From Escherichia coli (GTDB lineage Bacteria; Pseudomonadota; Gammaproteobacteria; Enterobacterales; Enterobacteriaceae), in the NCBI RefSeq assembly GCF_024502345.1, contig NZ_JALDNN010000001.1: 64,000 nucleotides of DNA; one strand, 5' to 3'. This document shows, piece after piece, positions 57,387 to 61,372 of the stretch (positions within the stretch are counted from its first letter, which is position 1; each line of letters begins with the position of its first letter). The notes beneath the pieces were generated by a model. It was not told where the DNA came from and searched no databases. It saw only the letters and a program-made list of their open reading frames with translations. A program made the translations under genes and the position numbers.

Positions 57387-57592
57387 TTCATTTTCACTTT
57401 CTTAAATCTAACGACAGACGGCTAACATTTAAGTATTGTGAAATATTATCAAATGTAATCATCATTGATTTACAAAAGATACATTTTGCCCCGAAAGGAT
57501 TCCTGTCAGAAACATCAAAAGATGATGTTCTATACTGAGAACCATGGCAACACGGGCATCTAAAGTGAATATGGTTTGTAATATTTTCTACC

Positions 57593-57805
57593 TCAAAGTG
57601 CCACTACATGAACAGCCGCGGGGCCTTTAGGTCCGTTCTCAATACCAAATTCGACTTGCTGATTCTCAGTTAACGTTTTGAAATCGTTGCTCTGAATAGC
57701 TGAGAAATGGACAAACACATCTTTGCTACCATCTTTCGGCGTGATGAAACCAAAACCTTTTTCAGGGTTAAACCATTTCACTAAACCAGTCATTTTGTTA
57801 GACAT
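57593..57805 (-). CDS. cspI: Cold shock protein, CspI-like
   Basis: 70-aa [70 protein letters not shown]. Confidence 0.92.
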
Positions 57806-58174
57806 CATTATTACCTTTTGAAGAAGTGAGCCCTTGGGCAGAATGGTCCGAAAAAAAATATCAGAGAGAAAAACCAACAAGGAAATCTCAAGAGGTACAA
57901 ATAATAAAATTATAACAATGACTGCTTCAGATAATTTTGTAACAAACCAGAACACCATTAACGCATGATTAACCAACCATAGCAAGGATTACTTTTGTAA
58001 AGAAAAACACACGAATGAAACAATAGCTTTATTTATTAATAAAACGTGTCATTCTGTCTAATGACCTTTTATCTTACCCTTAAGATTTCAAGGATTTTGA
58101 CTCATGGAAGAGTCCTTTTTATTTAAATTTCACATTCAGCGCTAAAAATAATCCGATTTAATGTTAATCTACAT

Positions 58175-59196
<1,022 letters not shown>

Positions 59197-59301
59197 GGAT
59201 ATTTATCAGGATTTATCGGTTTCTGAACCCTGGATATGTTTATCTGTCCCGGCCTGTTGAATCAGGCGGGGAAAAGGTAAAGACAATCAAGAGGATTATT
59301 T

Positions 59302-59574
59302 ATGGACAATAACACCATTTCTCTACAGGAGTTGCTCGACTGCATTTCAAAGCTTCGGGATGATGTAAATGCCCTCACTGTTGCATTTTCATATTTGGCC
59401 TTATCAATTCCCAGAGAACAAATGCAACCAACACTGGCATCGCTCCTGCTTGAATCACGCAACCCCAAATGGTCCCAGGAACAACAAAATTCTTTCAAGT
59501 GGCTGGCGGCATTACTGGAAGAAAAATATGCTGGTAAAATTACCATTTCGGTGGAGTCTTCAGAGAATCAGTAA
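59302..59574 (+). CDS. Hypothetical 90-aa protein on the opposite strand within the lysis cassette
   Basis: AGGA 7 nt upstream of the ATG; MDNNTISLQELLDCISKLRDDVNALTVAFSYLALSIPREQMQPTLASLLLE... Confidence 0.35.
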   Translation: MDNNTISLQELLDCISKLRDDVNALTVAFSYLALSIPREQMQPTLASLLLESRNPKWSQEQQNSFKWLAALLEEKYAGKITISVESSENQ

Positions 59575-59884
59575 TTCTTCCTGGTAGCTTTCCTTTGTAG
59601 GTTATCCACACATTCTGCGCCTCTAAAATTACGGGGCGCTTTTCCGGCGACTGCTCATCCCCTTCACATAACCCGGCTGCAACTTCCAGGAAGACCTGTC
59701 TGATGCTCCTTCTGGCTGCTGCCTCATAAAACTCCAGCGCGGCACCTTCAACACGGTCCAGCGAGATGTCCAGGTCAAAAATTTCACCGTCAAAGCGTTT
59801 TTTGTCCCTTAATGCTACAGTTACCGCAACTTTATTCTCAAAATTGCGGATCCCTTTCACAATCAGTTCATAGTTTTGTGTCAT
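59540..59884 (-). CDS. YdfR-like prophage protein (DUF1327)
   Basis: MTQNYELIVKGIRNFENKVAVTVALRDKKRFDGEIFDLDISLDRVEGAALEFYEAAARRS... Confidence 0.65.
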   Translation of the reverse strand: MTQNYELIVKGIRNFENKVAVTVALRDKKRFDGEIFDLDISLDRVEGAALEFYEAAARRSIRQVFLEVAAGLCEGDEQSPEKRPVILEAQNVWITYKGKLPGRITDSLKTPPKW

Positions 59885-59888
59885 TGAA

Positions 59889-60104
59889 TTACTCTCCCCG
59901 TGCAACCTTACGCTTGTCTTCTTTAATCTTGAAATAAAGGTTTGTCAGGTACGTCAGCAAGCCAAATACCAGACTACCCAGCACACCGATTGCAGCCCAC
60001 TGTGACGGAGTTACTTTATCGAGTAACTGCAATGCCCAGAAACCAGCATTACCAGCCGATGTGCCATAGGCGATACCTGTTGTTAACTTATCCATTGATT
60101 TCAT
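59889..60104 (-). CDS. Phage holin (EssQ/EssD type)
   Basis: 71-aa [71 protein letters not shown]. Confidence 0.88.
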
Positions 60105-60576: not shown

Positions 60577-60856
60577 ATATTGTGGTACTTTTTGTGGGAG
60601 TCATCCACTTACGCACTTTGTTTTGCTATGCCAGCAGTTAGCTTCTGCTGTAAAACTATTCATGCAGCAAACCTGCACTTCACCACAATGGTTAGCATAC
60701 TTTTCCTGATTAAGTTATTGCCAAATATGCTGGCCATTGTTTCATGTATTGGACCTCCTTACTCTTTATTAAAGAGATCCAATATTCACCACTCTGTCTG
60801 TATCTCCACTCAGGCATCAGCCTTCTTCGTTATCGTATACAGACAAACTATGAATT

Positions 60857-61072
60857 TTAATCAGTAATTATGACATTTGCTGCTGCAGGACCTTTAGCAC
60901 CACTCTCTACAGAGAAGGTAACCTTTTGACCTTCAAATAAGATTCGATAATTATCATTCTGAATCGCAGAAAAATGCACAAACACATCTTTACTACCATC
61001 AACAGGAGAAATAAAGCCAAAACCTTTATCAGCGTTAAACCATTTTACTAAACCAGTCATTTTATTTGACAT
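60857..61072 (-). CDS. cspB: Cold shock protein, CspB-like
   Basis: 71-aa [71 protein letters not shown]. Confidence 0.92.
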
Positions 61073-61372
61073 TCTACATTCCTTAACTTGAGCCTTTCGG
61101 CATAAATGGCTTGTATAACAGAAACGACTTCGTACTTAATTGGAGAGACTCAAAGAAGGAATAAGTGAATAACACCTGAAATGAGAACTGCTTTAGTAAA
61201 CTACTTCGTATATCGTCTGTTCTTCAAACCGACGCAATCATTAACGCATAGTTGAACATATGAAGCAATGTTTATTTTAGACATCCAGCCATCTTCAACC
61301 CCATCAAAAAACTATAGCTTTCTTCAGGAACGTGTGTATAGTGCGCCAAGTTATCAGTATTAAGGAATTTTT

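Follow-up and report, generated by a model that had tools for sequence, protein, structure and literature searches.

Does the open reading frame (ORF) that runs against the lysis genes of an Escherichia coli prophage encode a protein, and if so, does that protein belong to lysis? The question arises at positions 59302–59574 (plus strand) of a 64,000-nt stretch of contig NZ_JALDNN010000001.1 (assembly GCF_024502345.1), referred to below, in its full length, as the window. A Qin-like lambdoid prophage has its lysis cassette, encoded on the minus strand, at 58.1–60.1 kb of the window, and between the endolysin gene and a ydfR-like gene of this cassette lies a 90-aa ORF on the opposite strand, with an ATG start and a TAA stop, hereafter ORF90. 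An initial annotation, made from the sequence alone, had reported this ORF and a 343-bp gap on the lysis strand. Both were recovered, the gap at 59197–59539 between the endolysin gene and ydfR, and the ORF in a form identical to WP_001315200.1, listed as a 'hypothetical protein' by the Prokaryotic Genome Annotation Pipeline (PGAP) in RefSeq. Coding conservation and membership in PHROG 2411 indicate that ORF90 is almost certainly a real protein-coding gene under purifying selection. It probably (roughly 70%) represents the cargo of a moron, in which a leader-started transcript that ends in ydfR and is independent of the late operon would encode a small, acidic, protein-binding helical protein.

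Homologous DNA was collected from 80 IMG/VR loci (of 174 confirmed matches) and supplemented with 11 divergent alleles found via the protein database, which gave a gap-free alignment of 36 haplotypes with nucleotide identities down to 83%. In the part outside the ydfR overlap, the ORF90 frame showed a ratio of nonsynonymous to synonymous substitution rates (dN/dS; Nei-Gojobori) of 0.289, and 74 synonymous variants were counted in ORF90 against 39.9 expected (p = 2e-9). Variants at its codon positions 1, 2, and 3 numbered 42, 25, and 80, an order that is normal for a real gene, and variants creating a stop codon in this frame were depleted (2 vs. 7.3 expected, p = 0.02). The ATG and 89–90 codons were kept in 34 of the 36 haplotypes, including all of the divergent ones (9/9), whereas randomly placed substitutions of each divergent haplotype kept ORF90 open in 10–27% of trials. 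The codon-level conservation check suggested in the initial annotation was thus passed by ORF90 on 36 haplotypes, with a dN/dS of 0.29.

The lysis strand offers a competing frame of 94 codons (59262–59546, minus strand), the ATG of which overlaps the ydfR stop codon (ATGGTAA). Its dN/dS of 0.246 was equally low, against 0.94–1.16 in four other frames; it shares its strand with the operon, and its borders match those of a presence/absence segment described below (about 59255–59547) better than the borders of ORF90 do. On these grounds, the real gene could be the lysis-strand frame, read from 59546 to 59262 and translationally coupled to ydfR, with ORF90 as its antisense shadow, but we consider this extremely improbable. 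The low dN/dS of the minus frame arises because its third positions coincide with those of ORF90 and mirror the selection acting there. The minus frame was cut to 6–73 codons or had an ATA or ACG start in 13 of the 36 haplotypes, among them all nine divergent ones, in which ORF90 is intact, and these breaks arose via several independent changes in many lineages. Stop-creating variants in the minus frame showed no deficit (7 vs. 6.3 expected). Among the variants that are silent in one frame and replacing in the other, 20 were silent in the plus frame and replacing in the minus frame, and 11 were the reverse; the 11 exchange similar residues in ORF90 (K>R, N>S, D>E), whereas many of the 20 are radical changes when read in the minus frame (L>R, W>C, W>stop). 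Furthermore, homologs in other genera were found only for ORF90 and not for the lysis-strand frame. The tests of intactness, stop variants, and discordant sites together identify ORF90 as the gene and the lysis-strand frame as a shadow, and they ruled out the latter as a gene. The two frames illustrate cleanly that dN/dS by itself can assign a gene to the wrong strand.

Comparison with otherwise collinear prophages showed that the segment at 59255–59547 (right border fuzzy, 59535–59547) is present in some and missing from others. In strain 2009C-3133, the endolysin gene follows directly after ydfR, with about 59255–59547 gone, while two features described below, the left leader module and the leader hairpin's 5' arm, are retained; because of these remnants, the no-insert variant is regarded as a deletion derivative. 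In the Qin prophage of strain K-12, the region is absent altogether, and the 3' end of ydfR differs and overlaps the endolysin gene rrrQ. Judged by the definition of morons in PMC3594210, the segment is extra DNA that is absent from collinear relatives (2009C-3133 and K-12 Qin) and differs in base composition from its surroundings, with a G+C content of 0.42 against 0.47–0.51 (ydfR 0.47, window 0.50, rrrQ 0.51), a modest difference. About a fifth of complete E. coli genomes (1124 of 5426) carried the ORF90 cassette, BL21(DE3) among them (locus ECBD_RS11710, 94% identical), and ORF90 was labelled 'hypothetical protein' in every E. coli record among the matches listed.

The slot is also used by other genes. 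At the same place and in the same opposite orientation, other E. coli prophages carry a 79-aa ORF (phrog_21218; locus L004, 1682–1921) or an 86-aa ORF (phrog_2572; locus L003, 1661–1921), the second of which is followed by a textbook terminator at a locus where ydfR is truncated. BLASTP detected no match between ORF90 and either of these two ORFs. Remote homology between the ORF90 profile and the 86-aa family was considered separately and rejected at the available sensitivity (hhalign probability 0.5%). ORF90, for its part, was found without ydfR (L087 and L088), together with ydfR in another lysis cassette (L094), and beside stx genes (L092).

Conservation extended over the 105 nt that separate ORF90 from the endolysin start codon. 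These nucleotides contain a 5' leader module (59197–59240, plus strand), which is the putative promoter region and consists of an inverted repeat, TCAGG...CCTGG, followed by CCCTGGATATGTT. An identical 44-nt module stands ahead of both unrelated slot ORFs, and it accompanies ORF90 into L094. A candidate −10 element, TATGTT (59235–59240, plus strand), was kept in every haplotype that retains the upstream region; in the deletion variant L002, where the ORF is missing, the element reads CAGGTT, and its region was lost from L092 through an IS66 insertion. In this Stx prophage (L092, 1–2427), the IS66-family element lies in the ORF90 leader and cuts off the candidate promoter region, and ORF90 is still intact there, with 90 codons, despite the insertion. 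Between the candidate −10 element and the Shine-Dalgarno (SD) sequence, RNA folding predicted a leader hairpin from an imperfect inverted repeat (59239–59281, plus strand; −24.2 kcal/mol, z = −3.3). The SD sequence GAGGA (59291–59295, plus strand) is located 6 nt before the ORF90 ATG, its AGGA core (59292–59295) being followed by the spacer TTATTT, and almost all of the 19 upstream haplotypes keep GAGGATT. The initial annotation had correctly named the AGGA motif and had placed it 7 nt from the start codon; the spacing is 6 nt.

Downstream of ORF90, a terminator-like hairpin (GCGCCUC-N9-GGGGCGC, then UUUU; 59617–59643, plus strand) inside the ydfR coding sequence is a candidate for the end of the transcript. 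It was predicted in both minimum free energy and centroid folds, and the variant in L004 is altered on both arms. A terminator scan did not flag it, its loop being 9 nt long and followed by only 4 U. Plus-strand terminators stand in the equivalent place in L003 and in phages ES18 and HK022.

The leader links the ORF90 unit to a larger set of phage modules. The 79-aa slot ORF and an ORF90 homolog in Atlantibacter are preceded by a common longer leader containing TCAGCCCGTCAGYGGTRGGACRCTGG, and an exact-pattern scan of IMG/VR for this canonical leader returned at least 120 loci (L133–L252). It is also present in HK022 (L253, 1501–1621), ES18 (L254, 1501–1610), L004 (1548–1694), and L098 (3877–4013), and the phages in which it was found include HK022, HK633, mEp043, mEp213, ES18, SPN3UB, and others. 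The canonical leader is about 140 nt long, nearly invariant, and composed of a 5' TCAGG..CCTGG repeat, a core in which TCAGCCCGTCAGYGGTRGGACRCTGG pairs with GGCTGA, and an AGAGG/CCTCT hairpin. The cargo that follows it comprises at least 69 distinct proteins in at least 19 mutually unrelated BLAST families, with lengths of 42–169 aa (most 62–99), and the cargo of L235 is an ORF90 relative (E = 2e-31). The units run antisense to the late genes of lambdoid phages and prophages. The slots in use include those between tail genes M and L, between I and J, and between ydfR and the endolysin gene, as well as others.

Among the matches listed, the cargo proteins were mostly helical-looking, with some beta-rich ones, and the leader units were flanked by genes on the opposite strand upstream in 103 of 112 cases and downstream in 95 of 101, tail genes M and L being the commonest flanks. 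Many of the leader ORFs in this set had a small convergent partner on the late strand that overlapped their 3' end or directly adjoined it. At least 44 loci had a partner from the largest family (about 100 aa, MTLELRVEALEAAL...), and at least 11 had one from a DUF1327/YdfR cluster. One Y/R pair in the element was T-A in 93, C-G in 19, T-G in 7, and C-A in 1 of the same matches, and this U.G-tolerant base pairing suggests an RNA of the cargo strand. RNAalifold predicted a stem P1 (UCAGCC/GGCUGA) enclosing a stem P2 (CGUCAGUG/CACUGGCG); the stems are almost invariant, and covariation support is thin. In a second leader hairpin, an SD-like AGAGG pairs with CCUCU, and this hairpin often holds a mini-ORF encoding MADYL. 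The mini-ORF (ATG GCT GAT TAC CTC TGA) has a strong SD and ends beside the SD of the cargo (L162, 3913–4050; L140, 450–587). At some loci its reading frame continues into the cargo, so that the cargo protein starts with MADYL, and in others its ATG is replaced by ATA, ACG, or AAG, so the mini-ORF may be untranslated. A minus-strand terminator, AGCCACCxxCGGGTGGCT T6, was observed just past the leader in ES18, HK022, and the Atlantibacter locus. An Rfam search with the window leader and the canonical leader found only cspA thermoregulators nearby.

A covariance model built from 38 IMG/VR loci (R1), in which two training sequences from the ORF90 slot share the 5' part, matched the window at 59197–59291 with 31.7 bits (E about 4e-5). 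Model positions 1–47 aligned to 59197–59243 with high posterior probability, and the TTAAGGT/ATATGTT motif of the 5' module was present. The P1/P2 core was not found in the window, where 56 model positions are replaced by 13 nt with a different hairpin. Because only the 5' part of the model aligns and its core is replaced, the ORF90 unit is, judged from this alignment, a relative of the HK022/ES18-type morons with a shortened leader. The presence/absence segment, the opposite strand, the lower G+C content, and the 5' part of an HK022/ES18-type leader all support the suggestion of the initial annotation that ORF90 could be a real moron.

Residues 1–90 of ORF90 matched positions 1–90 of the phrog_2411 profile (E = 4.9e-57), which makes it a full-length member of a family annotated as 'unknown function'. 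ORF90 had no match in Pfam (E ≤ 0.1), NCBIfam, or PADLOC, and a sequence search of the PDB returned only YibL, with E = 0.2. Close relatives were confined to Escherichia and Shigella. Two successive searches, the first a profile search against 1.8 billion representatives, extended the family to relatives at 27–40% identity in Klebsiella, Citrobacter, Atlantibacter, Brenneria, Serratia, Hafnia, Sodalis, and others, with a common core of ELLxxIxxL..VNxLxxAFSYLAFS...E...I.SL.FES.N. The last ~13 residues differ among these relatives, and in ORF90 they are antisense to the ydfR 3' end. Since this antisense tail is unconserved, the functional protein, as read from the sequence comparison, is likely to end near residue 77, with the frame just continuing to the next stop.

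Several of the distant homologs lie outside prophages. In Serratia, Hafnia, Biostraticola, Sodalis, and Acerihabitans, a chromosomal homolog (X) is found in the order pyrC-dinI-X-bssS-solA (L101–L106 and L110–L131), an order that was seen, with X co-oriented, in 22 of 22 non-E. coli genomes recovered. Gene X encodes about 92 aa and has its own flanking terminators; in E. coli K-12, an empty 286-bp gap separates dinI from bssS (L132, 2957–3242). Gene X resembles ORF90 in its family, its sequence (27–40% identity), its core motif, and its similar length, but it is chromosomal, co-oriented with its neighbours, and outside any prophage. On visual inspection, neither ORF90 nor the Serratia homolog had a LexA box upstream; dinI has one. 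The Atlantibacter homolog occupies the slot between the M side and L in a lambdoid tail cluster, on the opposite strand and convergent with a 71-aa ORF. A further paralog of 89 aa, about 56–61% identical to ORF90, was found on 75 E. coli plasmids, mostly conjugative IncF plasmids, and in the one plasmid examined it lies between a gene for an AIDA/pertactin-type autotransporter and a gene for an AraC/GyrI-like regulator. This plasmid paralog (L108, 2608–2877) is called Ybl58 by some sources.

Literature searches on ybl58, phrog_2411, the WP accessions, and morons in lysis cassettes found nothing specific, and within an incomplete coverage of the literature we found no paper on the ORF90 family or on the shared leader. 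It is already known that ORF90 is annotated as a hypothetical protein and catalogued in PHROGs, that morons exist, and that HK022 and ES18 carry annotated relatives.

The ORF90 protein has a mass of 10.2 kDa and is acidic (pI 4.6). AlphaFold2 modelled it with a mean confidence (pLDDT, predicted local distance difference test) of 81.7 when a 49-sequence alignment was used and of 69.8 with 12 close sequences, placing helices at residues 8–35, 38–52, and 59–76 and a disordered tail at 77–90. The amphipathic, Leu-rich character assigned to the protein in the initial annotation agrees with the three amphipathic helices of this model and with a Leu content of 14 in 90 residues. Fold searches with the model returned generic helical bundles only. 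ORF90 has no hydrophobic stretch of transmembrane length (maximum 19-residue hydropathy 0.93), and its N-terminus, MDNNTISLQELLDC, is polar. Neither a signal peptide nor a lipobox nor a Bor-family domain was found in ORF90, which sets it apart from Bor/Iss, and it has neither the transmembrane segment nor the outer-membrane lipoprotein signal looked for as marks of a holin, antiholin, or spanin. The model predicts a soluble, cytoplasmic product with about 77 structured residues in three helices.

We therefore weighed the moron reading, at the probability given above, as a sequence of proposed steps. Transcription of ORF90 would start in the conserved leader (59197–59240), with TATGTT as the candidate −10 element; the mRNA would carry a 5' hairpin and the GAGGA ribosome-binding site and would end at the hairpin and U-run within ydfR. 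Expression would be independent of the Q-dependent late transcript and would most likely occur from the repressed prophage. The protein most likely acts through binding another protein, because ORF90 is without enzyme-like, DNA-binding, or membrane features. It may serve as a modulator of host physiology or stress, or as a phage-exclusion factor, in either case outside the holin-endolysin-spanin machinery; the synteny with dinI and bssS favours the stress or physiology role, and the hypervariable cargo behind one leader favours a role in exclusion or defence. ORF90 and the DUF1327 gene appear to repeat, in another slot, the two-gene arrangement of ES18 gp25/gp24, and this ES18-like pairing suggests that ydfR may be better viewed as part of the moron than as a lysis gene.

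Several observations weigh against this reading. A sigma-70 consensus scan of the window, ES18, and HK022 leaders found no match. The sequence of the leader hairpin at 59239–59281 is conserved, yet only 1 of its 18 pairs covaries and several break. The candidate terminator at 59617–59643 is weak, with a 7-bp stem, a 9-nt loop, and 4 U, and its sequence is also constrained by ydfR coding. Some database alleles of ORF90 are frameshifted or truncated, which indicates that the gene is dispensable in many strains.

The close association of ORF90 with its convergent partner invites two other explanations. The overlap of the two genes described in the initial annotation was confirmed at 35 nt (59540–59574), and if the transcript ends at 59643, at least 100 nt of ydfR would be covered by antisense RNA. 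Convergent overlap with a late-strand partner gene is, moreover, common in the related modules. The functional product could on this basis be an antisense RNA, convergent with ydfR and the holin gene, that damps read-through of the late operon or sets lysis timing, with the ORF incidental; however, purifying selection acts on ORF90 at the protein level, the protein is kept at 30–40% identity where there is no convergent gene (Serratia chromosome and plasmids), and ORF90 persists where ydfR is gone (L087 and L088). An RNA-only function is accordingly a very unlikely account, and the conservation of the protein in settings without an antisense partner means that the 'antisense transcript unit' of the initial annotation is not supported as the sole function. 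An additional antisense effect beside the ORF90 protein is possible. An obligate pair of ORF90 and YdfR, of the toxin-antitoxin or effector-immunity type, is unlikely too, if somewhat less so. In almost every E. coli copy, the two genes lie side by side and converge, they moved jointly into the different cassette of L094, and the pair architecture recurs in ES18 gp24/gp25 and in the many other leader ORFs that have a small convergent partner. Yet ydfR is far commoner, with about 5145 genomes matching part of an 801-bp ydfR-region query vs. 1124 with ORF90. Strain K-12 has ydfR alone, and ORF90 occurs without ydfR not only in L087 and L088 but also in the dinI-bssS chromosomal homologs and on plasmids. 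Partner families are mixed and matched, PADLOC gave no match for the pair, and the consistent co-occurrence expected of an obligate pair was not observed in either direction.

The position of ORF90 between the holin and ydfR genes on one side and the endolysin gene on the other would also suit an accessory lysis regulator, either antiholin-like or regulating the endolysin. Against this stand its location on the opposite strand, its lack of a transmembrane segment or lipobox, and the settings of its homologs (tail clusters, plasmids, and the Serratia chromosome); in addition, unrelated ORFs use the slot, and K-12 Qin and many other prophages do without ORF90. We judge a regulatory role in lysis to be marginally less probable still than an RNA-only function. 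Moron cargo thus remains our preferred explanation for ORF90.

Taken on its own, this result is modest, in that ORF90 is probably an ordinary but genuine moron. It nevertheless turns a 'hypothetical' frame of about 1100 complete E. coli genomes into a selected gene with an assigned strand, which is probably a moron and not a lysis gene. If ydfR is, as it appears from the window and ES18, the late-strand half of a convergent moron pair, the reading of its location in the 'lysis cassette' changes as well. The dinI-bssS counterpart, present in several other enterobacterial families, makes the function accessible to study in a tractable setting outside phages. We tentatively suggest, while regarding it as the less probable outcome, that ORF90 is one cargo of a widespread and apparently undescribed leader-cassette system in lambdoid prophages, in which the leader would act both as a regulatory RNA and as a homology 'handle' for cargo swaps, and the cargo would consist of arms-race genes for exclusion, defence, or host manipulation. 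The shared leader connects ORF90 to many unrelated small ORFs in HK022, ES18, and at least 120 viral contigs and is a testable handle on the expression and exchange of morons.

The remaining genes of the cassette, all on the minus strand, are the class II holin gene essQ (59889–60104), the ydfR-like gene (59540–59884), the endolysin gene rrrQ (Phage_lysozyme; 58663–59196), and rzpQ/DUF2514 (58175–58666). The ydfR product, the 114-aa convergent partner of ORF90, belongs to DUF1327 (PF07041, E = 9e-43; 144.9 bits against a gathering cut-off of 25). E. coli strain PAR is identical (100%) to the window over the whole lysis-cassette stretch. The cold-shock genes cspI, cspB, and cspF border the cassette, and the Rfam cspA thermoregulator (RF01766) gave two full-length matches beside it, at 57566–57963 (minus strand, 112.5 bits) and 60794–61233 (minus strand, 152.8 bits), which span the 5' regions of cspI and cspB.

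In K-12 Qin, ydfR overlaps the start of rrrQ in an arrangement typical of translational coupling (L096, 4055–4058). The ORF90 unit places 343 nt between ydfR and rrrQ, and no obvious SD precedes rrrQ; because of this separation and the missing SD, the insertion may affect translation of the endolysin. The K-12 YdfR protein binds the catalytic N-terminal half of RNase E, co-purifies with RNA, and may bind RNA (PMC13232886, 2026). The same paper (PMC13232886) describes the genes of the Qin lysis region as silent under standard growth and reported to be induced by cold, and this induction could be relevant to when the convergent ORF90 matters.

Comparison with known systems places the ORF90 unit closest to annotated morons of other lambdoid phages. 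The initial annotation had likened the position of ORF90 to that of lambda bor, and the placement is indeed similar: lambda bor and E. coli iss are small opposite-strand genes beside the lysis cassette, iss being found there in L004. The likeness does not extend to the protein, as Bor/Iss is a lipoprotein with a signal peptide, whereas ORF90 is without signal peptide, lipobox, or Bor domain; moreover, the bor/iss gene lies downstream of Rz, and ORF90 between ydfR and the endolysin gene. The promoter-early stem-loop (PeSL) cassettes of T4-type phages, reportedly described by Arbiol et al. in 2010 as a conserved promoter/stem-loop sequence before many unrelated small ORFs, are said to lie in variable regions and to have suggested module shuffling via the shared sequence, as is proposed for the moron leader. 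They differ from the ORF90 leader system in phage group, sequence, and genomic setting, and we take the analogy as a lead only.

HK022 gp23 and gp22 reportedly belong to the first morons described (Juhala et al. 2000). HK022 gp23, annotated as 'srb protein; moron gene product', resembles ORF90 in its opposite strand and its leader type; it has a plus-strand terminator of its own, as is proposed for ORF90, and it is convergent with the small late-strand moron gp22 as ORF90 is with ydfR. The HK022 pair differs in lying between tail genes I and J, and neither its cargo nor its partner protein is related to ORF90 or YdfR.

The ES18 pair sits in a slot between tail genes M and L and not in a lysis cassette, and its leader is the full canonical one, of which the window has only the 5' third. 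No relationship to ORF90 could be detected for ES18 gp25 (95 aa), which reached E about 0.02 with the profile of the family. In its organization, ES18 gp25, which like gp24 is annotated as a 'possible moron', nonetheless matches ORF90, as it runs opposite to the late genes, is preceded by the conserved leader, and is convergent with a DUF1327 gene, gp24 (30.7 bits; cut-off 25). As proposed for ORF90, a plus-strand terminator lies within the 3' end of the partner gene in ES18, where terminators are annotated in the record.

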